The notes beneath the pieces were generated by a model. That model was not told the origin of the DNA, searched no databases, and saw only the letters and a program-made list of their open reading frames with translations. The position numbers and the translations under genes were made by a program. Below are positions 654 to 62,487 of a stretch of 63,217 bases of DNA, piece by piece (within the stretch, counting starts at the first letter, position 1; each line of letters begins with the position of its first letter). The stretch covers positions 1-63,217 of the forward strand of contig CAZDWF010000003.1 in assembly GCA_964508895.1 (NCBI GenBank), read 5' to 3'. Source of the DNA: an uncultured Bacteroidales bacterium (lineage in GTDB: Bacteria > Bacteroidota > Bacteroidia > Bacteroidales > B18-G4).

Positions 654-681
654 GCAGGTCGCAAGGGGCAAGTCGCAAGGG
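654..681. repeat. Heptanucleotide tandem array, 4 units (GCAGGTC GCAAGGG GCAAGTC GCAAGGG)
   Basis: Read directly; strict 7-nt register; intergenic. Confidence 0.8.
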
Positions 682-818
682 AAGAAATCTGATATTTCGC
701 AGCTGAAACTCAGTGTCTATGTGGTTTTCTTAAGACTAAGCATAAAGTTGCACAAAGAATATTACAAAGGAACACCTGTAAAATAATAATATTAGTATAA
801 AAGTTTGCTCAGCGTGTT

Positions 819-860
819 CTTGCGACTTACTCCTTGCGTCTTGCGACTTGTGACTTGAAC
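819..860. repeat. Heptanucleotide tandem array, 6 units (CTTGCGA CTTACTC CTTGCGT CTTGCGA CTTGTGA CTTGAAC), inverted relative to 654-681
   Basis: Read directly; it is the reverse-complement flavour of the GCAAGTC family and ends 14 nt before the ATG at 875. Confidence 0.8.
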
Positions 861-874
861 CTAATAAAACATCA

Positions 875-1594
875 ATGAACCCCAAACAACTCATAAAAGA
901 CTATTTCACATTCTCCCGCCGGGAATTAAATGGCATAATCATCTTGCTTTCCATCCTCACTACCCTCATTATCTTCAACCGCATGATGCCACTAATTGCA
1001 AGCACAAATGACCCATCCATAGAATTTCATAATGAGATCCAGGTCTTCCTGCAAGAGCAGAAAAAGATCAAAGATTCCATTGCCTATGCTGACAGTTTGC
1101 GTAAAGCTAAATACTCTCAGAAATATAAATATTACAATGTCGCAAAGTCGAAAAGTCTCAATGAAACTATTAAAGGCAATAAACCAACATTATCTTCCGT
1201 AGCTTCAACGAAGGAGGTAGAACTCAACTCCGCGGACACTGCTTCCCTTATTTCCATTCATGGCATTGGCCCTGTCTTTGCCTCACGCATCCTCAAATAC
1301 CGAAAACTCCTTGGAGGATATTACAAAAAAGAACAACTTCTGGAAGTATATGGAATCGACAGTTTAGTATATATAAACATTGAGAAACAAATCACGCTTG
1401 ATACAAGCTTGATCAAAAAGATCAAAGTCAACACTGCGGAATTCAAGGAACTGCTAAAACATCCATATCTCAAATATGAAGATGTAAAAGCAATATTCAA
1501 ATTAAAAAAAGGAAAGAAGAAGATCTCACAGGAAAAACTAGATAAAGTTCAACTTACTAATGAAATGATACTGAAATATTTGGTTTTCGAATAA
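875..1594 (+). CDS. ComEA-like helix-hairpin-helix DNA-binding membrane protein
   Basis: N-terminal TM segment followed by two HhH modules (LISIHGIGPVFASRILKYR; VNTAEFKELLKHPYL). Confidence 0.65.
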   Translation: MNPKQLIKDYFTFSRRELNGIIILLSILTTLIIFNRMMPLIASTNDPSIEFHNEIQVFLQEQKKIKDSIAYADSLRKAKYSQKYKYYNVAKSKSLNETIKGNKPTLSSVASTKEVELNSADTASLISIHGIGPVFASRILKYRKLLGGYYKKEQLLEVYGIDSLVYINIEKQITLDTSLIKKIKVNTAEFKELLKHPYLKYEDVKAIFKLKKGKKKISQEKLDKVQLTNEMILKYLVFE

Positions 1595-1673
1595 AGTATC
1601 TGATAGATTTGTATTGATAAAATGTCCACGAATTCTACAAATTATCAAGATGATGACTCCTAGCTTGATTCTC

Positions 1674-1764
1674 TGGCATCCGGCATCCATCATCTGGCAT
1701 CCGGCATCTGGCATCCGGCATCTGGCATCCGGCATCTGGCATCCGATATCTTGTATCCTGCATC
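1674..1764. repeat. Heptanucleotide tandem array, 13 units, consensus YGGCATC (T/C alternation gives a 14-nt super-period)
   Basis: Read directly: TGGCATC CGGCATC CATCATC TGGCATC CGGCATC ... CGATATC TTGTATC CTGCATC. Intergenic, 80 nt after the ComEA-like stop. Confidence 0.9.
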
Positions 1765-1884
1765 TCAATTCATCCCATCCATAAATCCAGTATAAATTTT
1801 ATCATTATTTGATCGTATCTTTTATACACCTTTTCGCTTCTTTCCTGCAGAACTTAATCAAATATTAATGTAAGCAATAATGCC

Positions 1885-3921
1885 ATGAATATCAGATTTA
1901 TTGCTACAGCAGCTTTACTAACACTTATAAAATGCACCCTTGCCCAACAAAAACCTCCAGTAATAGAGGATGATTACGCCAATACCCAGGCAGGAATTCC
2001 TATTGCAGTGAATGTTCTGGAAAATGATTATGGAATGCATGGTCATAAGATAAAGATCTATCATGCCATTAACGGACAGGTTACACATAATGATAGCACT
2101 ATCTTCTATAACCCACCTATATCATTTTCAGGAGAAAAAATGATCAAATATATACTCATAGATGAAACTAATGGTTTATTTTCTGAACCAGGACAACTGT
2201 GGGTTAATGTCAGCAATCAAAATTCTCAATATATCAATGCCAATAATATAGATGCAAGAATAAACTCCAGTGGAGTTCATTTTTACATTCCTGATGGATC
2301 AGGGAACTCTCACTTTTATGTTCCCAAAAATACTATAAAGTCAACCTTTTTATCTTTAAGTTTATGGATTGGGGGTCTGGATTCTAATAATATTTTACAT
2401 TTTGCTGGTGATAAATACCAGAATTATGGCATGGATTTCTTTCCAGGACCAATCTCAGATATCTACGACTCTTCATACCAGAAGAAATGGAATAAAGTAT
2501 GGAAAATGAGTACATCAGACATAGAGTACCATAAAAACAATTGGTGGAAAGATGATTATACACCTACAACTACTATTGCGACATGGCCAACTCATAGTGA
2601 TTTGCACAAAAGATCCATAGATTTAATTGCACCCTTTGAAGATGTTAACTCCAATGGAATCTACGATCCAATGGAAGGGGATTATCCTGTTATAAAAGGT
2701 GATCAGGCCATTTTCTTTATTTTAAATGATGATAAGCAGAGTCATACTGGTTCCTATGGGAATAAACTTGGAGTTGAAGTGCATGGAATAGCTTATGCGT
2801 ATGATTGTCCTTGTGACTCATCATTACAAAACACTATTTTTTTTCATTATATAATTATAAATAAATCTAATATAACCTATGATAATACTTTTATCGGGTT
2901 TTTTGCAGATATGAATATTGGTTTCTTTATGGACGACTATATGCAAACCGATGTAAAAAGAAACAGTTTAATAGGGTATAATGGCAATAATATTGATGGA
3001 ATGGGTTATATAGGAAATGAATATTTAGAGCATCCACCGGCACAATCACTTACAATTTTAAAAGGGCCATTAAATGAAGCAGATGGTATTGATAACCCAG
3101 GATCAGACATTCTGGGGAATCCATTATGTGATCATAGTTATAACGGACAATATTTTGGTGATGGTATTATTGACAATGAATGCATGGGTATTTCATATTC
3201 ATCCATCTATACAACCATATCAGGCCCAATGTCTGATCCATATACAGCCTGGGATTATTATAGAAATATGCAGGGTAAGTGGAAAGATCATTCTGTTTTT
3301 CAATATGGTGGTGATGGCTACAACCTTTCTTCTAATGTTGGACCTGATTGCAGATATCTATATCCTGGAGCCAGTGACTCAGTAAATTATGGTACAAATG
3401 GACAATCACCTATTGGTGGTTATAACACGAATGGCTTTTTCTGGACTGAAGCCAGTGAAGATAATTACCCGGGTGATCGCAGAGGATCTGTTTCAATGGG
3501 ACCAATAAACTTTAAACCTGGAGATATTAAGGAAATTGATCTTGCACTGGTTTTTGGAATTGACTATCAGAGGACAGGAAATCTGGCAGCTCTTGATATC
3601 CTGGACGATAGAATTGATAAAATTATAGAAAATTTCCAAAAGGATTCCATATCCTGTGAACCGATATCTTTTAACAATGAAGTTAAAACTAAAAAAAACA
3701 ATATTAAAATCTGGTCAACTGAAAACACAGTCCATATTACAAATCCGGAAAATGCTAAAGGCAAGATTCGTATTTACAACCTTTATGGACAAAAAATACT
3801 GGAAACTAGACTTAATGGTAATATTAATCAGGTAATCAGTTTTGATAAGCCCACTGGACATTATATAGTAAAGATTACTGGAGAGGAGTTTGTGGTGAGT
3901 ACAATAGTTCGTAGTTCGTAG
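1885..3921 (+). CDS. Secreted T9SS cargo protein of unknown function
   Basis: Signal peptide; N-terminal cadherin/VCBS-like motif (PPVIEDDYANTQAGIPIAVNVLENDY); C-terminal T9SS type A sorting domain (IRIYNLYGQKILE ... GHYIVKITGEEF). Confidence 0.7.
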   Translation: MNIRFIATAALLTLIKCTLAQQKPPVIEDDYANTQAGIPIAVNVLENDYGMHGHKIKIYHAINGQVTHNDSTIFYNPPISFSGEKMIKYILIDETNGLFSEPGQLWVNVSNQNSQYINANNIDARINSSGVHFYIPDGSGNSHFYVPKNTIKSTFLSLSLWIGGLDSNNILHFAGDKYQNYGMDFFPGPISDIYDSSYQKKWNKVWKMSTSDIEYHKNNWWKDDYTPTTTIATWPTHSDLHKRSIDLIAPFEDVNSNGIYDPMEGDYPVIKGDQAIFFILNDDKQSHTGSYGNKLGVEVHGIAYAYDCPCDSSLQNTIFFHYIIINKSNITYDNTFIGFFADMNIGFFMDDYMQTDVKRNSLIGYNGNNIDGMGYIGNEYLEHPPAQSLTILKGPLNEADGIDNPGSDILGNPLCDHSYNGQYFGDGIIDNECMGISYSSIYTTISGPMSDPYTAWDYYRNMQGKWKDHSVFQYGGDGYNLSSNVGPDCRYLYPGASDSVNYGTNGQSPIGGYNTNGFFWTEASEDNYPGDRRGSVSMGPINFKPGDIKEIDLALVFGIDYQRTGNLAALDILDDRIDKIIENFQKDSISCEPISFNNEVKTKKNNIKIWSTENTVHITNPENAKGKIRIYNLYGQKILETRLNGNINQVISFDKPTGHYIVKITGEEFVVSTIVRSS

Positions 3922-4001
3922 TTGGTAGTTAGTAGTTAGTAGTTAGTAGTTGGTAGTTAGTAGTTAGTAGTTAGTAGTTAGTAGTTGGTAGTTTGTAGAT
4001 A
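3904..4001. repeat. Heptanucleotide tandem array, 14 units, consensus GTAGTTR
   Basis: Read directly. The array starts inside the last codons of the 1885-3921 CDS and contains its TAG stop (3919-3921). Confidence 0.9.
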
Positions 4002-8500: not shown

Positions 8501-8705
8501 ATTCCAATGGAATAAAAAAAATTGCAGAATCCAAAGTGCAGAAGAGCAAACTAATAAGTATTTTAGATTGTAAAAGAGAAAGAATGACAGAATTTAGCAG
8601 TAATCGCAAAAAAGCACAAAAAATTTCTATTCACTGTTCACTGTTCACAATAATAAATTATTAGCAAAAATTATTTAGATTTGAGGATTGTTCTACCAAG
8701 TTTTC

Positions 8706-10117: not shown

Positions 10118-10121
10118 TAAA

Positions 10122-14191: not shown

Positions 14192-14201
14192 CTTTTAGCT
14201 C

Positions 14202-45880: not shown

Positions 45881-45887
45881 TGTAGCT

Positions 45888-46886: not shown

Positions 46887-46899
46887 TATAACCAGTAAG

Positions 46900-48715: not shown

Positions 48716-48726
48716 AAATAGTTCAT

Positions 48727-50475: not shown

Positions 50476-50587
50476 TTTTATTAGTAAGCACTATAAAATT
50501 ATATAATACTGTTTCCAATAGCAAGATTTATAAATGAAATTTAGCTATTCTTACTTGTAAAAGTTCTTTCTAAACCTGATAACTAGA

Positions 50588-51934
50588 TTACTTAATGATT
50601 TGAATTTTTCTACTTTTTGATTTAATTCCATCTGATAAATTTAGCAGATATATTCCTGGTTTAAAACCTGATAAATCAATTTCTTGCAATACATCAATCC
50701 CGAAGTAAATATCCCTATCCAATAAATTTTTCCCCATCATGTCGTGTAATCCAATTCTCAACTTCATACTTATATTACTTCTATTTTTAATGTATATAAT
50801 AATTGATGCAGGATTTGGATAAACTAAAATGTTATCCAGGCTTATCTTTTCTTCCTTTATACTGGTAAGTTCAATCGATTCACATAAAGTATCAACGGAA
50901 CACTCATTATTAACGGTGAGGCAGACATCATATGTCCCATGTGAACCATAATAGTGAAATGGATTTTCCAATATAGTTCCATATCCATCTCCAAAATCCC
51001 AGTAATATGTTAATGCATTGCTGGAAAGGTTTATAAATATTACTGTATCACCTTGTATTAGGTATTGAAATTTTGCTTTTACAAGTGGGCAAACATTTAT
51101 TGAATCACAATATGTGGACTCACCATTTACATTGAACCCTGTTAAACAAACATTATATTTATCATATGAAGTATAATGGTGTATAGGATTTTCTAATGTT
51201 GATGAAAATCCATCTCCGAAATCCCAGTAATAAGTATCAGCATCCACAGATTCATTAGTAAATATTATTGAGTCCCCAAGTCTGTAAAAAGAATACAAAG
51301 GAGATGGTAGTATAGGTGGGAAATAAACAATTTCAAGTTTTGGCCTTAAATCAGAATTTGAATAATCACTGGAAGCAAAACAAATTGTTTTATGAGCAAT
51401 TTCTTCATATAATTTGAACATAATACCAAAATTACTATCTGGATTATGCACTAAGAATTCAATAATATCAGTTACATCTATATCAGGATAATTTTGAAGG
51501 TTATTGGTGCTTTTTGGCAAATTAACCTCATCTAAAGTAGTCGAAGAGGGTTGATTATTCCAGGTTACCTGATCTTCACCCCATGTTTCGGTTACTCGCC
51601 TGATACACCACTCATTCTCACCACTTTGTCCTGGTGGATAATTTGGCAAATCTGATGCAATAAATAATGAAAGTTTTGCTTCAAAAATAATGCTACTAGG
51701 AGGAAGTGCTGATAAATCAAACTCTATAAAGGACCTTGTATAATTAGTATCCGATCCAAGATCAAAAGCATGTGCTGTTATATCAGTACTATATCCCAAA
51801 TTCTGATCAGGACTCATACTTTTCACCTTAGCATCTTTTCCATCAGCAGTACCAGGTTGAATCACAATAGTATCCTGTGAAAAAGCTGAGAGCATAAATA
51901 AAATAAAAAAGGAAACAATAGGTAATCTTTTCAT
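50588..51934 (-). CDS. DNRLRE-like domain secreted protein with two PKD-like domains and T9SS type A CTD
   Basis: N-terminal module RSFIEFDLS ... AKLSLF; two YYWDFGDG PKD motifs; CTD ILVYPNPASIIIYI. Confidence 0.65.
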   Translation of the reverse strand: MKRLPIVSFFILFMLSAFSQDTIVIQPGTADGKDAKVKSMSPDQNLGYSTDITAHAFDLGSDTNYTRSFIEFDLSALPPSSIIFEAKLSLFIASDLPNYPPGQSGENEWCIRRVTETWGEDQVTWNNQPSSTTLDEVNLPKSTNNLQNYPDIDVTDIIEFLVHNPDSNFGIMFKLYEEIAHKTICFASSDYSNSDLRPKLEIVYFPPILPSPLYSFYRLGDSIIFTNESVDADTYYWDFGDGFSSTLENPIHHYTSYDKYNVCLTGFNVNGESTYCDSINVCPLVKAKFQYLIQGDTVIFINLSSNALTYYWDFGDGYGTILENPFHYYGSHGTYDVCLTVNNECSVDTLCESIELTSIKEEKISLDNILVYPNPASIIIYIKNRSNISMKLRIGLHDMMGKNLLDRDIYFGIDVLQEIDLSGFKPGIYLLNLSDGIKSKSRKIQIIK

Positions 51935-51977
51935 ACTTATAAACTTTAAATTTGGAGTTTATAAATATATTAAAAAA

Positions 51978-53279
51978 TCAAATATCATTAATGATACCGG
52001 AGATTTTATTCGCTAAAGCATTTCTTGAATATTTCAAATATACAGGATTTCTGGAATCAAGATTCTTATTCCCTTTCCAATGATTAAATAGTTCAGTCAA
52101 ATATTCTTTGAAAGCACTTTTATTCTCATAATCAATTACTCTGCCAGCCTTGCATTCTTTAATGACATCATTCACATTCCCATCTTCCGGTCCAATGCAG
52201 ATAATTGGTTTTCTGGAGCCTATATAATCAAATATTTTCCCTGATACAATTCCTTTGTTTTTCGGATTCCGTCTTATTGTGGAAAAACAAGCAGTGCTTT
52301 CCATTAAATATTTCACAGACTCTTCATGAGGAACGTATGGAATAAACTCAAGAATGTGGTCAATTTCAAATTTCGCAAACACCTCCCTTACACTATCATC
52401 AATGTTTCCTACAAACCTGAATAATACCGGAACGTCAGGATTATCAGCCATAACTTCATAAAGAGCTTCCACAAAAACATCCATCTTATTGGCATCATTG
52501 GCAAGAGAACCTGTAAAAGTGATCAGGAATTTATCCCTGGGAGGGCTGGAAGGTATATTGAAATCTTCTTCATCAAAACCATTGGGTATTATCTGTATCT
52601 TATCCTGGCTGATCTTCTTACTTTTTTTCTGTAACAATTGTTTTAAAGCATCACTTACAATCGTAATCCTGTCAGCTCTTTCTATTACTTTTCTTTCCAG
52701 GGATGCATCATATTTTTTTGCCAGGGCAGTATGATAAAATGCATCGTAATAAAAAATATCTGTCCAGGGATCGCGAAAATCAGCAATCCAATTAACAGCT
52801 GTTCTTTTTTTCAACTCAAGTCCTGAAAGGTGCACTGATTGAGGCGGACCTGTAGTTATAACCGTATCAATATTATGTTCTGCAATAATTTCCAGGGCTT
52901 TTTTCACTACATAGGGCTTCCACCCTACCCTTGCATCAGGAATGAATAAGTTTCCTCTGATAAAGCGGCTGAATTTCTGTGCAAGTGAAGGATTTGTTTC
53001 ATTATCGAAACTACTATGAGGATATTTCCCTTTACCTATCAACTTTCTGTATATATCGAATATCTCAAAAGTTTTGGTTTTATATACAATTAAATCTTGA
53101 GGTATTTCCTTTTCAAGGGATTTATCTATTACAGGATAGTTTGCTTTCTCAGGATCGACAGTCAGAACAAAGGGCTTTACTCCAAATTCAGGCAGGTATT
53201 TTACAAACTTAAGCCATCGCTGAACACCGGAGCCTCCACTGGGTGGCCAGTAATATGTTATGACCAGTACCCGCTTCAT
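51978..53279 (-). CDS. Glycosyltransferase family 4-like
   Basis: N-terminus VLVITYYWPPSGGSGVQRW; GT-B architecture; its start overlaps the upstream YfhO gene's stop by 4 nt. Confidence 0.65.
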   Translation of the reverse strand: MKRVLVITYYWPPSGGSGVQRWLKFVKYLPEFGVKPFVLTVDPEKANYPVIDKSLEKEIPQDLIVYKTKTFEIFDIYRKLIGKGKYPHSSFDNETNPSLAQKFSRFIRGNLFIPDARVGWKPYVVKKALEIIAEHNIDTVITTGPPQSVHLSGLELKKRTAVNWIADFRDPWTDIFYYDAFYHTALAKKYDASLERKVIERADRITIVSDALKQLLQKKSKKISQDKIQIIPNGFDEEDFNIPSSPPRDKFLITFTGSLANDANKMDVFVEALYEVMADNPDVPVLFRFVGNIDDSVREVFAKFEIDHILEFIPYVPHEESVKYLMESTACFSTIRRNPKNKGIVSGKIFDYIGSRKPIICIGPEDGNVNDVIKECKAGRVIDYENKSAFKEYLTELFNHWKGNKNLDSRNPVYLKYSRNALANKISGIINDI

Positions 53280-55756
53280 TTTTTAGCTTTTAATGCTTTT
53301 AATATCTCATACCCACCAACTCCAACAACAAGTAATATTAATAGCAATGAACTTGCCAGTGAAACAGCTTCTCCCTTTTTATAAATCTCCGGTTCAAATT
53401 TGAATTCTATGGTATGGCTCCCTTCAGGTACCACCATTGCCCTTAGCACATAGTTAACCCTGAAATGAGGATAAAGTTCTCCATCAATATAAGCATTCCA
53501 GCCATCTTTATAATAGATCTCTGAGAAGACAGCAAGCTGATCAGATTTTGTATTTGAAGTATATTTTAGATAGTTAGGCTTATATTCCAGGAAGGAAATG
53601 GCTGCAAGACTGTCATTTGCAATTTTTAATCCGTTTAGCTCATCTTCAAATCTTTTATCAATTATTGCTGTTGTTGCAGGATCAAATCCTGTTAAAGCCA
53701 TGATCTCTTCATCAGCATTATTAACGATCTGGTAATCATCCACTAACCAAACATTTCCTAATGCATTCCTGTTTATTATTGGCTGTGATTGAGGATTTAC
53801 AATAATGTATCTGGTATTCAACATATTCAACACTGGAAGTCCGGCCAATATATTTTCAGCATCCTGCATGGTCTTTGCATTTTGTAAAGCTCGTGAGAAC
53901 TTCTCAATTTCAGGAGATATCTGGTATTCAATTAATTCCTGGTACCTTCCCAGTTTAGCTCCATGGTATCCGCCTATTGATTTATGGAAATAGGGTGTGT
54001 TTCCATCATTAAAAGGACTGACTGACAGATTAAGAACCTTAAAGTTGGGATCTTTATCGTTAAGAATAAAATTATCTGCCACAGTAGGTTGATAAGGTTT
54101 CTCAAGTTTTGATTTCCGGACAAAGTTATCCTGATCAAGATATCTTCTATTCACAGACCACATGTCAGCGAGTATTAATACTCCGAGTATAAGTAAGACA
54201 TAAGTGTAGTTGATCTTCTTAGAGACCCATAACCATATCAAGCCAAATGAAAGACCGATAAAGATCAGTGAACGTAATGAATCCATTCTCAGTATGTATT
54301 TACGATCAACAATCAAAGCATCTATCAGAGGCTTTTGCAGTTGTCCGTCCTGAATTCCATTAAAGTTAAAAAACATGCCAGGCACTAAAATAAACAGCAG
54401 TAAAACAGCTCCAAGAATATAGGCTGCATATTTCATATACTTAAGCAGATCTTTTTTCTCAATATCACCCTTTAATATTTTTGATATTCCAATTATTGCA
54501 AGCAATGGAATGGCAAGTTCGGCCATAACCAGAATAATCGTAACTGCTCTGAATTTGCTGTATCCCGGAACATAGTCCAGGAAGAAATCCGTAAAGACCA
54601 TAAAGTTTTTACCCCAGGATAAAAAGATTGATAAAATAGCGACTGATAATAACCACCATTTATACTTTCCTTTCACAATAAACAATGCCAGCACAAAAAA
54701 GAAGAATACTATAGCGCCAACATATACAGGTCCTGAAGTAAAAGGTTGTGTTCCCCAGTAAACAGGAAGCTGTTTAATATAATTATTCGCCTGTGCAATC
54801 GGAACATTATTATCTCTTAATACCTTATAGAATTCAGAATTCTTTGACAATTCACTGGTTGTGCTACCTCCCATAAAGTCTGGGATAAACAAAGTGAAAG
54901 TCTCTGCAACACCATAACTCCAGGCTGTAACATAATCCCTGCCCAGTCCTGAAGTTTGGTTTGTTTCGTTCATAGTAAGCTCAGATTTTCCACGGGTTGT
55001 ATATTGAGAATGATCAGAAGCTATCCAAAGATTTGTTGCATGAGTTAACACAGCTATAAAGGCTGCTATTAACAGAATACCAAAAGCCTTAAAAAATCTT
55101 GCATAGGTCTTATGTCTGATCGTTTCAACAAGCTCATATATTCCGTAGATAACTACAATTAATAAGAGATAGTAAGTTATCTGAAGGTGATTTGCTTTAA
55201 GTTCAAGGGCAAGGAACAGGGCTGTAAGTATGGCACCTATTATATATTTACCTCTGAATGCCAGTATAATTCCTGCTAAGACCGGGGCCATATAAGCAAT
55301 AGCTACTGCTTTTGTATTATGACCGGCCTCAATTATTACAAAAAAATACGATGAAAAGGCAAAAGCAAACGATCCTATTAAACTTAGCCATGGATTTACC
55401 CTCAGCACTAATAGCAGAATAAAAAAACCAATGAAATAAAGGAAAACATAATCTGCCGGATGAGGTAAACCAAGTCTTATAATTCTATCAACATGAGTTA
55501 TCAGGTTTCCCGGATATTTCACAGAGGTCATATATGCCGGCATCCCTGAGAACATATTGTTAGCCCACAGGGCTTCTTCACCAGTTTCGGTCCTGTAATC
55601 AACAAGTTCTTTCGACATGCCTTTGAAACGTGTGATATCTCCCTGTTGTAATCTTTTCCCCTGAATTACAGGATAGAAAAATGCCAGGCTGAGGATAATA
55701 AATAAAAGAATTGCGACTAAATACGGGGCTAGGTCTTTAAATGAAGGAAATTTCAT
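53276..55756 (-). CDS. YfhO family membrane protein (putative lipid-linked glycosyltransferase)
   Basis: 826 aa. N-terminal multi-TM region with FFYPVIQGKRLQQGDI start typical of YfhO; large C-terminal extracytoplasmic part plus a terminal TM helix. Confidence 0.65.
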   Translation of the reverse strand: MKFPSFKDLAPYLVAILLFIILSLAFFYPVIQGKRLQQGDITRFKGMSKELVDYRTETGEEALWANNMFSGMPAYMTSVKYPGNLITHVDRIIRLGLPHPADYVFLYFIGFFILLLVLRVNPWLSLIGSFAFAFSSYFFVIIEAGHNTKAVAIAYMAPVLAGIILAFRGKYIIGAILTALFLALELKANHLQITYYLLLIVVIYGIYELVETIRHKTYARFFKAFGILLIAAFIAVLTHATNLWIASDHSQYTTRGKSELTMNETNQTSGLGRDYVTAWSYGVAETFTLFIPDFMGGSTTSELSKNSEFYKVLRDNNVPIAQANNYIKQLPVYWGTQPFTSGPVYVGAIVFFFFVLALFIVKGKYKWWLLSVAILSIFLSWGKNFMVFTDFFLDYVPGYSKFRAVTIILVMAELAIPLLAIIGISKILKGDIEKKDLLKYMKYAAYILGAVLLLFILVPGMFFNFNGIQDGQLQKPLIDALIVDRKYILRMDSLRSLIFIGLSFGLIWLWVSKKINYTYVLLILGVLILADMWSVNRRYLDQDNFVRKSKLEKPYQPTVADNFILNDKDPNFKVLNLSVSPFNDGNTPYFHKSIGGYHGAKLGRYQELIEYQISPEIEKFSRALQNAKTMQDAENILAGLPVLNMLNTRYIIVNPQSQPIINRNALGNVWLVDDYQIVNNADEEIMALTGFDPATTAIIDKRFEDELNGLKIANDSLAAISFLEYKPNYLKYTSNTKSDQLAVFSEIYYKDGWNAYIDGELYPHFRVNYVLRAMVVPEGSHTIEFKFEPEIYKKGEAVSLASSLLLILLVVGVGGYEILKALKAKK

Positions 55757-56183: not shown

Positions 56184-56333
56184 TTATCTCATTTCATCAG
56201 AAACGCTAAGCCTTTTCCTTCCTTTTGCTCTTCTGGATCTAATAATTTTCATTCCATTAACACTCGACATTCTTTTCCTGAATCCGTGTTTGTTCTTTCT
56301 CTTTCTGTTTGATGGCTGAAATGTACGTTTCAT
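56184..56333 (-). CDS. rpmH: 50S ribosomal protein L34
   Basis: My own translation of the minus strand gives [49 protein letters not shown] (49 aa), the canonical L34 sequence. It falls below the ORF-track length cutoff. Confidence 0.92.
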
Positions 56334-56416: not shown

Positions 56417-56479
56417 CAAGGAGCAAGGAGCAAGTCGCAAGGAGCAAGTCGCAAGTCGCAAGGGACAAGGAGCAAGGAG
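56417..56479. repeat. Heptanucleotide tandem array, 9 units (CAAGGAG / CAAGTCG / CAAGGGA)
   Basis: Read directly. 56431-56455 is the exact reverse complement of 57043-57067. Confidence 0.9.
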
Positions 56480-56516: not shown

Positions 56517-56879
56517 TCAACTTCTATTTTCAAGATAACCTAAAAAGCCATACAGCACCTTACCTAATTCAAGTAGTTGATCATGAAGATCTTTATATAG
56601 TTGTAAATCAAGCAATGATTTTGTTTCGTATAAAGTTTCAAGATGATCGATAGTTTCATCTTTACTGGCAATCGCATATATAATAAACCTTATATAATCC
56701 TTTGTATATTTTTTCCTTCCATATCCTTCGACAATATTTGATCTAATTGATTTTGATGATCTTCTTATTTGACTTCCTGTTTCATATAATTCTATACTGG
56801 GCAAATGAAGAGACATATTATGTATTTCAATACTGACTTCCTTTGCTTTTTTCCAAACTTGCAAATCTTTGTAACTCAT
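56517..56879 (-). CDS. Four-helix-bundle protein (23S rRNA intervening-sequence protein / Avd family)
   Basis: 120 aa with [17 protein letters not shown] ... [21 protein letters not shown] ... [16 protein letters not shown] pattern typical of this family. Confidence 0.8.
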
Positions 56880-56913: not shown

Positions 56914-56947
56914 AAAAAAAGTCCCGCTAAAAACGGGACATTTTATT
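56914..56947 (-). terminator. Rho-independent terminator downstream of pepD (potentially bidirectional)
   Basis: GTCCCG-CTAAAAA-CGGGAC hairpin flanked by a 7-A run on the plus strand, which gives a T run after the stem on the minus strand. Confidence 0.6.
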
Positions 56948-57042
56948 AATCAACTTCTCAATGCATTGATAACGAGCCGATTAGTGATCTTTTCGGGATT
57001 TTAAAAGTGTCAATAAACACCACATCCCAGCCCAAAGCACCC

Positions 57043-57070
57043 CTTGCGACTTGCTCCTTGCGACTTGCAT
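57043..57070. repeat. Heptanucleotide tandem array, 4 units (CTTGCGA CTTGCTC CTTGCGA CTTGCAT), inverted partner of 56417-56479
   Basis: Read directly; abuts the pepD stop codon (57071-57073). Confidence 0.85.
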
Positions 57071-58531
57071 CTATTTCACAGGAATATTCTTAAGCGTCTC
57101 AATCAGAAACTCCCAGAATAATTCAACTGTCCTGATATTAACCATTTCATCAGGTGAGTGTGGGTTCCTGATTGTTGGCCCGAATGAGATCATATCCCAG
57201 TGTGGATATTTTGATCCAAGTATACCGCATTCCAATCCTGCATGTATAACTTTCACTTCAGGAACTTTACCATATTTATTATTATAGATCTCTTTCATCT
57301 CATGTAATACAGAAGATTCAATATTTGGCTTCCATCCTGGGTAATCACCTGATACTTCAACTTCAGCACCGGCATCTGCAAAAGCTTTCACAGTATCTTT
57401 TGAGAGATTATCCTTTTCATCATCTACCTGGCTTCTCTGTAATGTAGCTAATTCAAAGTATCCATCTTCAGATTTCACAATTGCAAGGTTAGTTGAGGTT
57501 TGAACAACTCCAGGCATATCGGGTTCCATGCTGATAACACCATTCGGACAATCTTCAACTGCTTTAAAAAGATTTGCCTGTGCTTCAGTATTAACTACAT
57601 GCAAAGGCATCTTTGTCCTGTCTATCTTTATTATTAATCCAGGATCAGCATCTTTATAAATTTCTTTTTGTTCTTCTTCAAATTTCGCATGCAGGTCTTT
57701 AAATGCATCCTTTTTATTATCAGGAACAACAACTACAGCAAATGATTCTCTTGGAATTGCATTACGAAGGCTACCCCCATCAATTTCAGAAAGCCTTAAT
57801 CCATAATTCTCGGCTCCTTCCATTAAAAGTGCATTCATTATCTTATTTGCATTTCCTCTGCCAAGATGAATATCAAGACCTGAGTGCCCTCCTTTAAGTC
57901 CCATCACAGATATTTTATAAGGAGTAACATTTGCAGGAACCTCCATATTCTCAAAAGGAAGTTTGGCATTTGTATTAACACCACCGGCACAGCCAATATA
58001 AAGTTCACCTTCATCTTCTGAGTCAAGGTTTATCAATATGTCTCCATCCAGTTCACCTGCCTGCAATCCGTTAGCGCCAGTCATTCCGGTTTCCTCATCA
58101 GCAGTTAAAAGTGCTTCTATAGGGCCATGGACAATATCATCAGACATAAAAACGGCCATGGCTGCAGCAGCTCCTATTCCATTATCTGCTCCCAGGGTAG
58201 TATCTTTTGCTTTCACCCATTCTCCATCAATCCATGCATCAATAGGGTCGGTTTCGAAAATATGTTGTTTGCTTGAATTCTTCTGTGGAACCATATCAAG
58301 GTGGGCTTGCAGTATAACACCTTTCCTGTTTTCCATACCAGGAGTAGCAGCTTTTTTCATAATAATATTTCCAACTGCATCCTCTTTGGTTTCAATACCA
58401 TGCTTTTTACCAAATTCATTCATAAATGCACGGATCTTTTCCTCATGTTTTGAGGGTCTTGGAATCTGTGTCAGCTCATAAAAATTCTCCCAAAGAAGTT
58501 TGGGTTCAATATCCATTATTTCTTTTCCCAT
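57071..58531 (-). CDS. pepD: Xaa-His dipeptidase (aminoacyl-histidine dipeptidase, M20C)
   Basis: LWENFYELTQIPRPSKHE N-terminus; metal-site motifs QAHLDMV and GADNGIG; 486 aa. Confidence 0.85.
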   Translation of the reverse strand: MGKEIMDIEPKLLWENFYELTQIPRPSKHEEKIRAFMNEFGKKHGIETKEDAVGNIIMKKAATPGMENRKGVILQAHLDMVPQKNSSKQHIFETDPIDAWIDGEWVKAKDTTLGADNGIGAAAAMAVFMSDDIVHGPIEALLTADEETGMTGANGLQAGELDGDILINLDSEDEGELYIGCAGGVNTNAKLPFENMEVPANVTPYKISVMGLKGGHSGLDIHLGRGNANKIMNALLMEGAENYGLRLSEIDGGSLRNAIPRESFAVVVVPDNKKDAFKDLHAKFEEEQKEIYKDADPGLIIKIDRTKMPLHVVNTEAQANLFKAVEDCPNGVISMEPDMPGVVQTSTNLAIVKSEDGYFELATLQRSQVDDEKDNLSKDTVKAFADAGAEVEVSGDYPGWKPNIESSVLHEMKEIYNNKYGKVPEVKVIHAGLECGILGSKYPHWDMISFGPTIRNPHSPDEMVNIRTVELFWEFLIETLKNIPVK

Positions 58532-58618: not shown

Positions 58619-58723
58619 AGTCGCCAGTCGCCAGTCGCCAGTCGCCAGTTTCCAGTCGCAAGTTTCCAGTCGCAAGTCGCAAGTCGCCAGATGCCAGATG
58701 CCAGATACCGGATGCAAGATACA
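58619..58723. repeat. Composite heptanucleotide array, 15 units: AGTCGCC x4, AGTTTCC, AGTCGCA, AGTTTCC, AGTCGCA x2, AGTCGCC, AGATGCC x2, AGATACC, GGATGCA, AGATACA
   Basis: Read directly; single 7-nt register throughout. Lies between the MFS terminator and the pepD promoter. Confidence 0.9.
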
Positions 58724-58743: not shown

Positions 58744-58769
58744 AAAAAAGCCCCACGTTAATGTGAGGC
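58744..58769 (-). terminator. Rho-independent terminator after the MFS transporter gene
   Basis: Stem GCCCCAC / GTGAGGC (one mismatch) with a 6-nt loop; a 6-A run on the plus strand gives a T run after the stem on the minus strand. Confidence 0.5.
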
Positions 58770-58775
58770 TTTGTG

Positions 58776-58810
58776 TCTATAATCTATAATCTATAATCTA
58801 GAATCTATTC
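58776..58810. repeat. Heptanucleotide tandem array, 5 units (TCTATAA x3, TCTAGAA, TCTATTC)
   Basis: Read directly; contains the stop codon of the MFS gene (58805-58807). Confidence 0.8.
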
Positions 58811-60478
58811 AAGATTAGCTTTTTCTATAGCTTCTCTGTCTTTTTGTGATTCCGCTCCTGAAGGAAGTTCCAGTCCGTATCCTTGTTTCTTATCTGCTCT
58901 TCTAAGCATAAATGCCAGGAATAAAGCAACCACACCCAAGCCTACAAGCATTAAAATAGGATTTGTATAATCAAATGCCGGAATTTCATGTGTTAGCTGT
59001 TGCATTTCCTGCAGTTTGGCACTTATTTCAACTCTTGACAATCCTTGCGCTTCAAGTGAAGCTCTTGTTGTTTCAAGCTTATCAACTACAATTGGGTTAG
59101 ACTTATCAAGTACCCAACCAATTCCTTTAAAGAAAATGTTCAATCCCCAGTTCTGGATCGTAAACATGGCAGCATACGCTGTTCCCAGTCTGTTTTCTGC
59201 AACAATCTTAGCAACTGATGGCCACATAGCTGCAGGAACAAGTGAAAACGCAATTCCAAGTGCCAGGAGCCCAAAATATCCAAGGACTACATTATCTAAT
59301 AATGATAAGGTTAAGTGAGCAAATATCAGAAGCAATGCCCCCAGTATCATCAAAGAAGCTGCTTTACCTTTTGTATCAACAAGTTTCCCGAATATTGGGG
59401 TGAAAAGGATGGAACCCAGAGGTATTAAACTTGCTGTTTTAGGACCGTTTTGCAACCATAATTCCAGTGTATCAGATAATGAATAAATAAACAGTACAAA
59501 GAGCAATAGGATAATAACTAATGATATCCTCTTTCCTGATTTATTTTTTATAAAAGTGGGGACCAAAGTAACAGCTAATGCAAAGATGAATAATCCAATG
59601 AATATCGAAGCATTTCCCAAAGTAGTACTTCCAAATAATACTACATCTGCACTTGCTGGCAGTTCATAAGTGAATCCAAATTTATTGATCAATAAATCAG
59701 GAGCATATTGCATAAATGGGAAAACTGCAGAGTAAAATGTAACACAGAGTAATGCAATAAGAATAAATGAACGATTTGTAACAAGCTTAATAAGATCTGA
59801 GAATCTAAAGGGTTCCTCATCTTCATCTCCTGCTTGTCCTTTCATCTGCCTGTCAAGCTTAATATCAAACATAATATATATAAGGAACATGATAAGACCA
59901 ATTCCAATTAGTGTAGCTGCAAAGTTCACAGCCGGAGAAACGATACCACCACCAATATCAATTGATAAAGCTTGTCCTAAGGTAGATCCAAGTCTTCCAA
60001 ATCCCATATTGATTGCCATAGCCAATGCCAGTTCATAACCTTTAAACCACTTCACAATGGTTCTCATAGCAATAACACAAACTATCTCTAATCCTGATCC
60101 GAACAATAAACGGCCAATCATCATTACCCACATTTGTGAATTGACATCATCAGAAAATATTCCTGCCGCACCCATTGCAGTTAATGATGCTCCAATTACC
60201 GCAAGCAAACCAAACACAATACCAGTTCTTCGTATGCCCCATTTATCGAGGATAATACCACCAATAATTATCATTCCAAATACGTTGGCCCATGTAGTCC
60301 ACTGGATCAATGTACCAAACTGACTGGATGTAATACCCATTTCAGTAATCATCAATGGCTTGATTCCTGAAAAGAAATCCTGGAACCAATAGGTGCCAAA
60401 AGTAAGTCCACTGATAAGAATCAACACAAGCCATCTTGCTGCTGCCGAGTCTTTTAAAGTTCTTTTAATTGTTTCCAT
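58805..60478 (-). CDS. MFS transporter
   Basis: 557 aa, about 12 TM helices with a central charged loop; adjacent to pepD, so a peptide substrate is possible but unproven. Confidence 0.7.
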   Translation of the reverse strand: METIKRTLKDSAAARWLVLILISGLTFGTYWFQDFFSGIKPLMITEMGITSSQFGTLIQWTTWANVFGMIIIGGIILDKWGIRRTGIVFGLLAVIGASLTAMGAAGIFSDDVNSQMWVMMIGRLLFGSGLEIVCVIAMRTIVKWFKGYELALAMAINMGFGRLGSTLGQALSIDIGGGIVSPAVNFAATLIGIGLIMFLIYIMFDIKLDRQMKGQAGDEDEEPFRFSDLIKLVTNRSFILIALLCVTFYSAVFPFMQYAPDLLINKFGFTYELPASADVVLFGSTTLGNASIFIGLFIFALAVTLVPTFIKNKSGKRISLVIILLLFVLFIYSLSDTLELWLQNGPKTASLIPLGSILFTPIFGKLVDTKGKAASLMILGALLLIFAHLTLSLLDNVVLGYFGLLALGIAFSLVPAAMWPSVAKIVAENRLGTAYAAMFTIQNWGLNIFFKGIGWVLDKSNPIVVDKLETTRASLEAQGLSRVEISAKLQEMQQLTHEIPAFDYTNPILMLVGLGVVALFLAFMLRRADKKQGYGLELPSGAESQKDREAIEKANLE

Positions 60479-60533: not shown

Positions 60534-60645
60534 CAAGATACAAGTAACAAGATTCAAGATACTGGATACCGGATGCCGGATGCCGGATACCTGATGCCGG
60601 ATGATTCTATGAACTAATCCAGAATCTATGATCTATGATCTATAT
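60534..60645. repeat. Composite heptanucleotide array, 16 units: CAAGATA-type x4, CYGGATR-type x6, three degenerate units, TCTATGA-type x3
   Basis: Read directly; one register throughout. The last units contain the rsmG stop codon (60640-60642). Confidence 0.85.
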
Positions 60646-61260
60646 ACTAATATGTACGATTTTCTTCGTTTCAAAAAAGTCTTCTTCAAAATGATCTGAG
60701 ATATTAAAAACTTCAGATCGGTATTTAATGCTTTTAAGTTCATCCTGAAAATCTCCTCCTTTTAAATAAAGAATGCCATTGGAGAGTTCATTTTTTGAAC
60801 GGGGATAGATCTTGTTTTTTATCCAGGATGTAAATACCGGTAAATTTGTTACTGCCCTGCTGACTATAAAATCAAATTTTTGATCCAGGTTTTCAGCTCG
60901 CAAATTTAATGCTCTCACATTTATTAATCCTAACTCTTCTACAAGCTCTTCGACCACATTGATCTTTTTTCCAATTGAATCGATCAGGAGAAATTCAACC
61001 TTCGGGAATAAAATTGCAAGTGGGATTCCGGGAAAGCCTCCTCCTGTTCCTACATCACATATGCTGCTGTTGCTATGAAAGTTGATACTCTTAGCAATAC
61101 TTAAGGAATGTAATACATGGTTCACCTCAAGATTATCTATATCTTTCCTGGAAATCACATTTATCCTGGAATTCCAGTATTCGTATAATTCAGGAAGCAT
61201 ATCAAATTTTTCATACTGCTCATCCTGCAAATCCTCAAAATATTTTCTAACTAACTCCAT
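60640..61260 (-). CDS. rsmG: 16S rRNA (guanine527-N7)-methyltransferase
   Basis: SAM motif DVGTGGGFPGIPLAI; 206 aa. Confidence 0.85.
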   Translation of the reverse strand: MELVRKYFEDLQDEQYEKFDMLPELYEYWNSRINVISRKDIDNLEVNHVLHSLSIAKSINFHSNSSICDVGTGGGFPGIPLAILFPKVEFLLIDSIGKKINVVEELVEELGLINVRALNLRAENLDQKFDFIVSRAVTNLPVFTSWIKNKIYPRSKNELSNGILYLKGGDFQDELKSIKYRSEVFNISDHFEEDFFETKKIVHISI

Positions 61261-61374
61261 AAATTTTCACTTTTGCCTTTTGCTTGCTTTCTTCTGTTAC
61301 GCGTTACGTTTTTTAATAACATTTCTTTGTGAAAAAAAAACCTGCACACAATAAAAACCCAATAAAAGCTATTC

Positions 61375-61382
61375 TATTTTTG
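61375..61382 (+). promoter_or_regulatory. Bacteroidota -7 promoter box TATTTTTG
   Basis: Matches TAnnTTTG, 26 nt before the ATG at 61408. Confidence 0.4.
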
Positions 61383-61407
61383 TAATATCAAAGATATCCA
61401 AAAACTT

Positions 61408-62373
61408 ATGATTAGTCGTCTGATACCAATATTTATAAGCATATTTCTAATTATGTCCTCAATAAGCCTGGTGGCGCAGAAGAAGATAACTTATAAAGAA
61501 TATGTGGAAACCTACAAGGATATCGCTATCAGAAAAATGCATGAATATAAGATCCCGGCCAGCATAACTCTTGCCCAAGGCATTCTGGAGTCTGGTAGTG
61601 GCAACAGTGAACTGGCCAAAAGAGCTAATAATCATTTTGGGATAAAATGCCATAAAGGCTGGACAGGCAAGACTTTCATAATGGATGATGATGAGAAAAA
61701 TGAATGTTTCAGGAAGTATAAATCCGCTGAAGATTCTTACCGGGATCATTCCTTGTTCCTGACTGAACGCCAGCGCTATTCTGATCTTTTCAACCTAAAG
61801 GTTACAGATTATAAAGGCTGGGCATATGGATTAAAAAAGGCAGGTTATGCTACCAATCCAAAATACCCACAGTTACTTATCAAGATCATTGAAGAGAACA
61901 GATTGTATTCATATGATTCAAAAAAGCCAGGAAAAGAAAGCAAACACATAGATAAGATCCCACAGGAATTAATTGATAACTCCAGAGTATTGCTGAAACC
62001 TCTGAAAATAAACGGTACTTTTTATAAAACAGGTCCTGATGAAAGAAAAATTTATAAGAATAACGGTGTGAAATACATACTGGCAAGAGATGGTGATAAC
62101 TTCGAATCTATTGCAGATGTATTTAACATTTATACATTCCAGGTTTATAAGAATAATGATCTTGAAAAAAATGATAAATTGAGTGAAGGACAAGTTATTT
62201 ATCTTGAAAAGAAGAAAAATAAGCATAAAAAGAAATATCATCTTGTTCAGAAAAACGAGACCATGTACTATATTTCACAGCTATATGGTGTTAAGCTGAA
62301 AAAACTATATAAACGCAATGGCATACAGGAGGGCATGGAACCGATAGTTGGGAAGAAAGTTAAGTTACGATAG
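61408..62373 (+). CDS. Glucosaminidase (GH73-like) domain protein with C-terminal LysM domains
   Basis: LAQGILESGSGNSELAKRANNHFGIK muramidase/glucosaminidase motif; LysM-like YILARDGDNFESIADVF and HLVQKNETMYYISQLYGV. Confidence 0.75.
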   Translation: MISRLIPIFISIFLIMSSISLVAQKKITYKEYVETYKDIAIRKMHEYKIPASITLAQGILESGSGNSELAKRANNHFGIKCHKGWTGKTFIMDDDEKNECFRKYKSAEDSYRDHSLFLTERQRYSDLFNLKVTDYKGWAYGLKKAGYATNPKYPQLLIKIIEENRLYSYDSKKPGKESKHIDKIPQELIDNSRVLLKPLKINGTFYKTGPDERKIYKNNGVKYILARDGDNFESIADVFNIYTFQVYKNNDLEKNDKLSEGQVIYLEKKKNKHKKKYHLVQKNETMYYISQLYGVKLKKLYKRNGIQEGMEPIVGKKVKLR

Positions 62374-62452
62374 TTCGTGGTATAATTTCCGATTCCATAC
62401 TCCATATTTAGGTGCGCATCGGTTGTCTTTTTGTTACAAATCGTAAATAGGA

Positions 62453-62487
62453 AATCATCCGGCATCAGGCATCCGATATCCGGCATC
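62453..62487. repeat. Heptanucleotide tandem array, 5 units (AATCATC CGGCATC AGGCATC CGATATC CGGCATC)
   Basis: Read directly. Same flavour and orientation as 1674-1764, inverted relative to 60562-60603. Overlaps the stop codon at 62486-62488. Confidence 0.8.

Follow-up and report, generated by a model that had tools for sequence, protein, structure and literature searches.

The 63,217-nt stretch of DNA analysed here, hereafter the window, originates from contig CAZDWF010000003.1 of an uncultured Bacteroidales bacterium and carries 16 arrays of tandemly repeated heptanucleotides in its intergenic DNA and at the extreme 3' ends of its genes (Table 1). The arrays are a Bacteroidota member of the known class of heptameric simple sequence repeats (SSRs), a class whose function is unexplained. 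Contiguous units of 7 nt, an excess of this period over others, a bias towards non-coding DNA, related but dispersed loci and variation between relatives were all found. The class itself is already described; the new detail is the register of arrays with stop codons, the bracketing of terminators and a series of relatives exhibiting turnover and motif replacement. With a probability of about one half, the arrays would have arisen passively, by slipped-strand expansion in steps of 7 nt and by copying between spacers, and would have been kept where insertions are harmless.

Arrays of at least three copies were called using Tandem Repeats Finder (TRF), with overlapping rows collapsed, and the level expected by chance was determined from 200 third-order Markov shuffles of the window. 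Thirteen period-7 arrays were observed against a mean of 0.35 per shuffle, an excess of approximately 37-fold. Of the 14 non-redundant arrays reaching three copies, 13 had a period of 7 and the remaining one a period of 15, while no array with a period of 5, 6 or 8 reached three units in the window (shuffle means of 0.18–0.37). Within the window only period 7 is enriched, which upholds the strict 7-nt period claimed in the original prediction; the 12 clear loci and two weaker cases that it listed were likewise all recovered in place by TRF and inspection of the sequence. Fourteen of the 16 arrays were called by TRF, and two degenerate arrays of 3–5 units (22544–22575 and 14188–14208; TRF score below 30) were recognised by eye only. 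TRF additionally resolved arrays or sub-arrays at 27912 (27905–27932 by eye), 58686–58720, 60558–60603 and 60624–60643. A purpose-built period detector scoring +1 per match and −3 per mismatch proved overly stringent, recovering only six arrays, and was replaced by TRF and the shuffles. The predicted density of about one array per 5 kb holds as an average (one per 4–5 kb) but not as an even spacing, since 12 of the 16 arrays are clustered within 0–4 kb and 56–63 kb.

Logan contigs from three run series (SRR243024xx, SRR318028xx and SRR8146440) were 100% identical to the window and free of gaps across seven arrays, with those at 654, 818, 56417, 57042, 58776, 60534–60643 and 62456 matched base for base. 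The presence of identical arrays in contigs from three independent run series excludes an assembly artefact, one of the possibilities that had been named as refuting the observation. Logan short-read contigs of the same organism from several samples end inside three long arrays, at 1720, 58621/58647 and 60573, and the unit counts of these three are therefore those of the present assembly only. Coding repeats can also be excluded, as all 16 arrays are intergenic or overlap only stop or last codons, in accordance with the predicted location between genes or at their extreme 3' ends. CRISPR arrays are composed of repeats of approximately 23–50 nt that alternate with unique spacers of comparable length, and cas genes usually lie nearby. 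The units observed here are 7 nt in length and contiguous, without spacers, and no Cas protein was present among the 20 window open reading frames (ORFs) scanned against Pfam. A CRISPR origin was rightly discounted at the outset and is excluded.

The position of arrays relative to genes was determined using a 54-gene model derived from the ORF list. Among spacers of at least 100 nt, arrays were present in 11 of 14 with tandem or convergent flanking genes and in 0 of 5 with divergent ones (hypergeometric P ~0.005). The −7 box of Bacteroidetes-type promoters has the sequence TAnnTTTG. Five spacers have such a box 19–67 nt before a start codon; in these, the array closest to the box ends 30–55 nt upstream of it, beyond the −33 element. 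Array 22544–22575 ends 38 nt upstream of the −7 box TATATTTG, for example, and array 58619–58720 ends 38 nt upstream of the box TACTTTTG (at −50) of the M20 dipeptidase gene. A scan of the window for sigma-70 promoters gave no excess over shuffles, this being a model that does not apply to promoters of Bacteroidota.

At the other end of the spacer, the arrays are frequently in contact with stop codons. A stop codon was touched or included by 7 of the 16 arrays, compared with 1.86 ± 0.84 expected when each array was placed at random within its own spacer (P = 5 x 10−5). The stop codon forms the first triplet of unit 1, in gene sense, at rsmG, the major facilitator superfamily (MFS) transporter gene, the purine-nucleoside-phosphorylase-family gene (PNP), gene 27933–30350 and the pyrD-like gene. 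At the M20 dipeptidase gene the array that follows the stop is offset by a single base change (TAGATGC AAGTCGC AAGGAGC...), and array 3905–3998 begins 14 nt inside gene 1885–3921, which terminates at the TAG of unit 3. Arrays not in contact with a stop are of mixed orientation relative to transcription.

Similar placements were found in other genomes. For comparison, 41 related Bacteroidota loci (L001–L041) were used together with a congener, L174, and a fragment, L175, whose M20 dipeptidases exhibit 92% and 90% identity to that of the window. The stop codons of the PNP and M20 genes occupy the same positions in the orthologues of L001 and L036, and the arrays therefore abut ancestral stop codons and leave the proteins unaltered. 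The array at the MFS stop occupies the entire gap between the stop and the terminator-like hairpin (58772–58747), and hence lies in the 3' untranslated region (UTR); arrays between stop and terminator were found in the window, L174, L175 and L015. Units bearing TAG or TAA in gene sense are situated at the stops of the Gluc, rsmG and MFS genes of L174, of the MFS gene of L175 (TAAGCAA) and of rsmG in L036 (TAGCAAA). In the 41 related loci 8 of 28 arrays start between −18 and +7 nt from a stop, and in low-GC metagenome loci 9 of 44 arrays lie between −21 and +7 nt. The latter analysis was read in the low-GC subset only, because in high-GC sequence spurious long open frames end in any array containing TAG.

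The arrays of the window are related to one another. Sharing of identical 7-mers was uninformative, random segments being equal to arrays in this respect, and 12-mers were used instead. An identical 12-mer on either strand was found in 13 of 120 array pairs, compared with 0.19 for random window segments and 0.29 for independent random units; array 1675 has 12-mers in common with those at 58619, 60534 and 62456. When written from AG, the units AGATGCC, AGATACC, AGATACA, AGATTCA, AGTCGCC, AGTCGCA, AGGAGCA and AGGGGCA may be arranged by eye in a network of single steps. Judged by eye and not by statistics, most units appear to form one such mutational network, several parts of which would be traversed by the compound array 58619–58720, which grades from AGTCGCC through AGTTTCC/AGTCGCA, AGATGCC and AGATACC to AGATACA.

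The recurrence of flavours in both orientations, as originally described, extends to inverted pairs at three places in the window. The segments 649–679 and 819–849 are 81% complementary and 139 nt apart, 56430–56455 and 57043–57068 are 100% complementary over 26 nt and 587 nt apart, and 60572–60606 and 62453–62487 are 91% complementary over 35 nt and 1846 nt apart, the complementarity of the last pair including 3–4 flanking bases. In the window and the 41 related loci combined, a partner within 250 nt (at least 12 of 14 nt matching) was inverted for 13 of 40 arrays and direct for 3 of 40. RNA folding of 640–870 gave a z-score of −4.5, with a stem made by arrays 654 and 818, and this was the sole array-built fold to surpass shuffles. 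Spacers dominated by one long array gave z-scores of +1.1 and +1.3 and other array-containing spacers −0.2 to −1.8, while the fold of 22488–22670 (z = −5.7) results from hairpins outside the array. The mixed orientation of the arrays, together with the finding that single arrays are no more structured than shuffles, argues against a strand-specific RNA function. The 137 nt between the inverted arrays 654–681 and 818–857 (682–817) yielded no Rfam match at the gathering threshold and have no similarity to the interior of the cassette described below.

Comparison of orthologous spacers, proposed in the original prediction as a means of detecting variation, revealed differences in both unit number and unit variants between the window and L174. 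L001 and L036 (approximately 72% M20 identity) are fully syntenic with the window from 51 to 63 kb. The spacer between the MFS and M20 genes measures 35–45 nt in Prolixibacteraceae, where it contains no array, 273 nt in the window, of which about half is arrays, and 225 nt in L174. Both the window and L174 possess a five-unit TAGATYA array on the MFS stop, next to it a conserved terminator and, beyond the terminator, a second array that is orthologous in the two. This second array comprises 15 units in the window against 11 in L174; the expanded variants are GGCGACT and GGCATCT in the former and TGTATCT and TGCATCT in the latter. L175 retains the order stop, array, terminator, inverted array and promoter with an unrelated complementary motif (TAAGCAA; TTGCTTA x19).

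The spacer between rsmG and the MFS gene contains TAGATCA, GGCATCC and CTTGTAT arrays in the window; L174 instead has TAGTTCG, the motif of array 3905 in the window, on the rsmG stop together with an inverted copy. A TAGATCA array is present on the Gluc stop in L174 and absent in the window, and the array on the PNP stop is present in the window and absent in L174. In the Gluc–rsmG spacer, a CGTAACG seed of two units in the window corresponds to four units in L174. Unrelated motifs occupy the same spacers in L001 and L036 (AGTCCAG; TAGCAAA, AGAGAAA, AATACTA), while 8 of 9 L174 arrays have an 11-mer in common with some array of the window, often in a non-orthologous spacer. Arrays are thus acquired, altered in length, exchanged for others and lost as species diverge, and draw on a repertoire that is genus-wide. 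On the shorter time scale of the three run series the arrays are stable, with no difference in unit number in seven arrays.

A nested repeat was observed in the MFS–M20 spacer of L036 (9700–9860), where two copies of a hairpin-containing element of approximately 55 nt (GTGGAGCGAGGCAAAGCCGAGGGACATCCCGCCGAAGGCGGGG) lie inside purine-rich heptamer arrays; it looks like a different small repeat. Unit variants of the window (AGTCGCC, AGTTGCC, AGATGCC; GCAAGGA) were also observed at L025 (~12310–12345) and L027 (5422–5459), and in L169, L157 and L163. This group consists of Bacteroidota metagenome-assembled genomes (MAGs) with approximately 57% M20 identity and of low-GC metagenome contigs.

Period-7 arrays are not confined to the motifs of the window. 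In the 41 related loci TRF called 25 period-7 arrays, built from many motifs. A metagenome scan with five units of AGNNGCN returned at least 120 loci with GC contents of 31–75%; as a single pattern was used, the scan is silent on enrichment of that shape. In 120 of these loci there were 210 period-7 arrays, 90 beyond the 120 selected for, whereas the counts for periods 6, 8 and 9 were 41, 16 and 24. Because the excess of period 7 recurs in the relatives, with many motifs, and in the metagenome loci, the heptamer bias is a property of many genomes in many lineages and not of one motif.

The original prediction was aware of no described equivalent of heptamer arrays in Bacteroidota. Such equivalents exist: direct-repeat arrays of heptamers have been reported in Flexibacter litoralis, Paludibacter propionicigenes, Gramella forsetii, Aequorivita sublithincola and Elizabethkingia anophelis, as well as in Beggiatoaceae and 15 cyanobacteria (MacGregor 2015, PMC4679880). 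In Gramella and Aequorivita long arrays share spacers with other heptamers and close relatives have shorter spacers without repeats, and draft contigs of Elizabethkingia end inside the repeat region (PMC4679880). The window arrays resemble these in being intergenic tandem heptamers with several flavours per spacer, array-less shorter spacers in relatives and broken contigs; the host is an uncultured Bacteroidales-like lineage outside that sample. In 'Maribeggiatoa' arrays are mostly of 2–6 units directly upstream of starts, unlike those described here, which are at 3' ends or upstream of promoters. The TAACTGA direct repeats of PMC4679880, most of which lie just ahead of start codons, were not found, with no match to TAACTGATAACTGA at two or fewer mismatches in the window. 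According to the account given in PMC4679880, Mrazek et al. 2007 found heptanucleotides to be the most abundant class of long SSR in most genomes and proposed that approximately 7 nt of DNA contact the polymerase, favouring slippage.

A close parallel in arrangement is provided by Xanthomonas, in which approximately 185 arrays per genome with the degenerate consensus GGGANTN are 89–93% intergenic and lie at a mean distance of 28 nt from the preceding ORF and of 160 nt from the following one, with only 7–8% between divergent ORFs (Rehm et al. 2015, PMC4692102). Those arrays occur on both strands, with 70–75 cases of close convergent inverted sites; the Xcc and Xac genomes have arrays of differing length and sequence in the same spacers, and neither a functional bias of neighbours nor a regulatory role was demonstrable (PMC4692102). 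The window repeats share with those of Xanthomonas (GGGAATC) and Nostoc PCC 7120 (GGGGAYT) exact 7-nt units, a genome-specific degenerate consensus, dispersal through intergenic DNA on both strands, proximity to the end of the upstream ORF, rarity between divergent genes, inverted pairs, differences in length and sequence at conserved spacers between close relatives and the absence of bias in neighbour function. They differ in comprising several linked motifs rather than one, in belonging to a different phylum and a low-GC genome (~35%), and in that unit 1 often opens with the stop, in contrast to the mean distance of 28 nt in Xanthomonas. As the motifs of the window are not G-tracts, G-quadruplex formation, the focus of PMC4692102, does not apply. 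Heptanucleotides of Calothrix are among the examples cited in that paper.

A resemblance to the short tandemly repeated repetitive (STRR) sequences of heterocystous cyanobacteria had also been suggested, and holds in form: both consist of tandem heptanucleotides in dispersed intergenic copies with few related motifs per genome. The STRR sequences were reportedly described by Mazel et al. in 1990. The units of STRR1–3 are CCCCAGT, TTGGTCA and CAACAGT. The closest window unit is ACCCAGT at 27912, one base from STRR1, whereas the defining STRR1–3 motifs and a cyanobacterial host are absent, and the likeness is one of form and not of membership. The trinucleotide AGT/ACT was observed inside many otherwise unrelated motifs (approximately 17 of 37, against approximately 20% expected), which recalls the CAGT core of STRR1 and STRR3 and TAACTGA.

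Repetitive extragenic palindromic (REP) units are imperfect palindromes of 20–40 nt associated with RAYT (Y1) transposases. Like REP/BIME sequences of enterobacteria and pseudomonads, the window arrays are dispersed short elements at gene 3' ends that often form hairpin-capable inverted pairs and vary between strains; unlike them, they are tandem heptamers, and single arrays lack internal dyad symmetry (z = +1.1 and +1.3). No RAYT-like protein or transposase was found among the 20 window ORFs scanned against Pfam.

The passive origin proposed above would require a lineage-level mutational bias, in which whole 7-nt units are gained or lost by slipped-strand mispairing or unequal exchange. Segments of arrays would then be copied to other spacers, often inverted, through template switching or gene conversion, and such copying would lead to the recurrence of the related motifs AG-ATGCC, AG-TCGCC, AG-TCGCA, AG-GAGCA, AG-ATACA, TAGATYA and TAGTTNG. 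Purifying selection would clear arrays from coding sequence, because a 7-nt step shifts the reading frame, and also from core promoters and divergent promoter regions. The tolerated zone would begin at the stop codon, take in the 3' UTR and the surroundings of the terminator, and end just short of the −33 element of the next promoter. Arrays pressing against these boundaries would bring the stop into the first triplet of unit 1, or sometimes into a one-base variant of the unit. The register with the stop would need no function: if an array persists only downstream of a stop, a unit that carries a stop triplet, or is one base from it, may absorb the stop. The hybrids seen at unit 1 (TAG/AAG, TGA/GGA, TAA/CAA) fit this picture. 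Most arrays would be neutral or selfish filler, with stop codons in all three frames behind a gene (since 7 is 2 x 3 + 1), longer hairpin arms around terminators and longer spacers as side effects. In favour of this reading are the excess of period 7 alone, here and in other genomes, the limits set to the arrays by stop codons, promoters and divergent spacers, the unaltered PNP and M20 stops, the turnover in L174, the unrelated motifs of L001 and L036, the sharing of motifs between loci and the housekeeping character of the flanking genes. The literature adds the equivalent anatomy of Xanthomonas and Nostoc, for which no function was found (PMC4692102), and the slippage hypothesis of Mrazek et al. 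2007 (as given in PMC4679880).

Several points weigh against passive slippage and copying. No difference in copy number was found among near-identical populations in the three run series, and the long arrays, in which variation would be likeliest, are those broken in the contigs. Simple slippage does not explain the exact 7-nt step, the small motif repertoire at different loci and in different genomes, or the excess of inverted over direct partners (13/40 against 3/40). The exact abutment on stops and the order of stop, sense array, terminator, inverted array and promoter, repeated in three congeners with two unrelated motifs, could equally reflect a selected function. These gaps, namely the number 7, the repertoire, the inverted pairs and the terminator architecture, keep alive two rivals, one based on function and one on mobilisation.

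The better surviving of these, itself judged unlikely, holds that the arrays are functional 3'-end modules, in which the sense-strand array at the stop would act as a three-frame backstop against frameshifted or read-through ribosomes and/or offer proteins an unstructured binding platform within the 3' UTR. The inverted partner on the far side of the terminator would extend the hairpin, and would thereby stabilise the transcript or insulate the next promoter; the binders would be single-strand-binding proteins with a footprint of approximately 7 nt. RRM proteins of Bacteroidota may be suggested as candidates. Cold-shock-protein or S1-type OB folds have been proposed as heptamer binders (PMC4679880).

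The contact of 7 of 16 arrays with a stop (P = 5 x 10−5) is what such modules would predict, although the neutral route can also yield in-register abutment. Most units carry TAG in gene sense at rsmG, the MFS gene, gene 27933–30350, the pyrD-like gene and gene 1885–3921, as do TAG/TAA units at the Gluc, rsmG and MFS stops of L174, the MFS stop of L175 and the rsmG stop of L036. Conversely, a stop is found only in unit 1 at the M20 gene (TAG, then AAG x4) and only in some units at the PNP gene (TGA, GGA, GGA, TGA), and arrays situated away from stops are found in either orientation and contain no stop codons. Their situation between stop and intrinsic terminator in the window, L174, L175 and L015 means that arrays are transcribed, and the order stop, array, terminator and inverted array is kept in three congeners despite the change of motif. 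The excess of inverted partners (13/40 against 3/40 direct) and the fold of the 640–870 pair (z = −4.5) would be consistent with extension of hairpins, yet most spacers fold no better than shuffles. Gene ends without arrays, such as the 35–45-nt spacer of Prolixibacteraceae and the PNP stop of L174, exhibit no visible compensation, and the Xanthomonas study found no regulatory effect (PMC4692102).

A possible cargo is present at one of the inverted pairs. A gene of the 23S_rRNA_IVP family, encoding a four-helix bundle, lies with a terminator-like hairpin (56921–56939) in a segment of approximately 590 nt (57041–56480), or approximately 650 nt with both flanking arrays. The segment is situated exactly between two GCAAGNN arrays with 26 nt of 100% complementarity. 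Between the M20 gene and rpmH, the orthologous spacer measures 57–62 nt without an array in L001 and L036, and in L174 contains approximately 160 nt of arrays without an IVP gene. No further IVP gene was found beside arrays in the 41 related loci; a single partial match came from L090, and an IVP cassette with heptamer ends remains a single case. By analogy with rRNA intervening sequences, a read-through transcript could loop the IVP gene out on the 26-bp stem.

It is improbable that the arrays are actively mobilised, either as REP/BIME- or MITE-like elements with terminal inverted repeats formed of heptamer arrays or by a templated repeat-adding enzyme, an activity that would spread the motif repertoire specific to a genome and sometimes take a terminator or the IVP gene along as cargo. 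Motif sharing among loci is far above chance for 12-mers and 11-mers, as would be expected of moving elements, and the flavour-matched inverted pairs (26 nt at 100%, 35 nt at 91% and 31 nt at 81%) resemble element ends; the sequence between paired arrays is nevertheless unique every time, with no similarity between interiors and no other copy of the IVP gene. In comparison with L174, L001 and L036 the IVP cassette represents an insertion, located exactly at the junction of opposite arrays. The array on the PNP stop, absent in L174, matches an array 1.85 kb away including 3–4 flanking bases, but this pair encloses two conserved, syntenic housekeeping genes and hence is no insertion. In Xanthomonas, approximately 185 arrays have one consensus and 70–75 are in convergent pairs (PMC4692102), a pattern that mobilisation would also produce. 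Against it, the 20 scanned ORFs include no transposase or RAYT-like protein, growth in situ from a two-unit seed is visible (CGTAACG, from two units in the window to four in L174), and relatives of approximately 70% identity carry unrelated motifs in orthologous spacers.

A wider conjecture, to which we would also give only low odds, is that heptamer arrays, rather than being passive microsatellites, are an actively generated, sequence-family-specific system common to distant phyla, in which a dedicated activity would seed arrays at stop codons and on either flank of terminators and would insert small cassettes such as the IVP gene where opposite arrays meet. The candidate activities would be an enzyme that adds repeats or switches templates, or a protein whose binding footprint is 7 nt, and the product would be a three-frame stop combined with an extended terminator hairpin. 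Contingency loci, in which a change in unit number switches expression of a neighbour by phase variation, like the short SSRs of host-adapted pathogens, are highly improbable: intergenic SSRs can alter promoter spacing (PMC4679880) and arrays 818–857 and 60534–60603 end 18 and 56 nt before a start codon, but the arrays are located at 3' ends or farther upstream than the −33 region rather than between promoter elements or in 5' coding sequence, their neighbours are housekeeping genes (rsmG, purB, pyrD, Rnf, PNP and the dipeptidase) and not surface antigens, and seven arrays have no unit-number difference across three run series.

The window has a GC content of approximately 35%, and proteins that it encodes carry Por_Secre_tail C-terminal sorting domains of the type IX secretion system (T9SS). 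The M20 dipeptidase is closest to those of uncultured Bacteroidales MAGs (71–73% identity), followed by Prolixibacteraceae (~60%). Both the sorting domains and these nearest genomes identify the host as a member of the Bacteroidota. No tRNA genes, and no Rfam family at the gathering threshold, were found in the window. Genes neighbouring arrays include rsmG, the PNP gene, an N-acetylglucosaminidase gene, the MFS transporter gene, the M20 dipeptidase gene, rpmH, purB-like and pyrD-like genes, Rnf subunits, an ABC ATPase and a comEA-like gene; from the Pfam scan of 20 window ORFs, the flanking genes are housekeeping genes of many classes. The rpmH gene, encoding ribosomal protein L34 (49 aa), was located at 56184–56333 on the reverse strand, being too short for the ORF list, and its promoter and leader (TACTTTTGCACACCCAAAATT) are conserved in L001, L036, L007 and L174.

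The stretch of the window from approximately 38000 to 52000 has a GC content of 30–33% and tightly packed genes with almost no spacers, and is without heptamer arrays. A Glyco_transf_4 glycosyltransferase (51978–53279) lies at its distal end with a YfhO-like protein just beyond (53276–55756), and the stretch is probably a surface-polysaccharide cluster. Purine-rich repeats with periods of 18 and 15 (GAAGAGGAAGAAAAAGCA; AAGAAAAAACTGAAG) at 12384–12470 lie at the 3' end of ORF 12000–12473; they are in-frame coding sequence and unrelated to the heptamers.

Table 1. Heptamer arrays and associated features of the window. Positions are those of the window; +, forward strand; −, reverse strand.
Position	Strand	Feature	Context
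654–681	+	GCAGGTC GCAAGGG GCAAGTC GCAAGGG; GCAAGNN flavour	Left arm of inverted pair
818–857	−	Complement of GCAAGNN (TCTTGCG ACTTACT CCTTGCG ...)	Right arm of inverted pair; ends 18 nt before ATG at 875
1675–1765	−	13 units, GGCATCC/GGCATCT alternating (period-14 superstructure); complement of RGATGCC	Spacer between comEA-like gene and next gene
3905–3998	+	13.4 units, TAGTTCG/TAGTTGG/TAGTTAG	Occupies 77% of convergent spacer
8630–8648		Weak; TTCACTG x2.7, perfect	120 nt upstream of purB-like gene, also upstream of its −7 boxes
14188–14208	+	Mini-array TAGCTTT TAGCTCT TAGAAGT	First TAG is stop of pyrD-like gene 13277–14191; covers 10-nt convergent spacer
22544–22575	+	Degenerate GCAAGNN (AAGTCGC AAGGGGC AAGGAGC AAAATGC)	Between end of Rnf-subunit gene and promoter of ABC ATPase gene
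27861–27891		TTTAGCG TTTTGCT TTTAGCC TTTAGCT	
27905–27932 (TRF 27912–27926)	−	Gene sense TAGGTTC TAGGTAC TGGGTAC TGGTGAC TAGGTGT	Unit 1 opens with TAG stop of T9SS-tail gene 27933–30350
56417–56479	+	9 units, GCAAGGA/GCAAGTC (period-21 superstructure)	Distal arm flanking IVP cassette; ends 49 nt upstream of rpmH −7 box
56517–56879	−	23S_rRNA_IVP-family gene (four-helix bundle)	
57042–57068	−	Gene sense (TAGAT)GCAAGTC GCAAGGA GCAAGTC GCAAGGG	2 nt after TAG stop of M20 dipeptidase gene 57071–58531; proximal arm
58619–58720	+	Compound, ~14.6 units	Between MFS terminator and M20 promoter
58747–58772	−	Intrinsic-terminator-like hairpin of MFS gene	Between stop-abutting and promoter-proximal arrays; kept in L174
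58776–58808	−	Gene sense TAGATTC TAGATTA x3 TAGACAC	Unit 1 opens with TAG stop of MFS gene 58805–60478
60534–60603	+	Compound: CAAGATA/CAAGTAA/CAAGATT, then CTGGATA CCGGATG CCGGATG CCGGATA CCTGATG CCGGATG	
60624–60643	−	Gene sense TAGATCA TAGATCA TAGATTC	Unit 1 opens with TAG stop of rsmG (60640–61260)
62456–62487	−	Gene sense TGATGCC GGATATC GGATGCC TGATGCC GGATGAT	Unit 1 opens with TGA stop of PNP gene 62486–63202

Arrays of heptanucleotides have received too little study in bacterial genomes. In practical terms, the arrays fragment short-read assemblies at predictable places and inflate spacers that would otherwise be readable as regulatory regions. The window adds a dense, clean example from an uncultured Bacteroidales-like lineage and a sharper placement of the arrays, which often start on the stop codon, bracket terminators and halt short of the −33 region. 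It also adds a graded set of relatives, at 100%, 92%, 90%, approximately 72% and approximately 60% protein identity, in which the birth of arrays, the turnover of their units, the replacement of motifs and their loss can be followed spacer by spacer.

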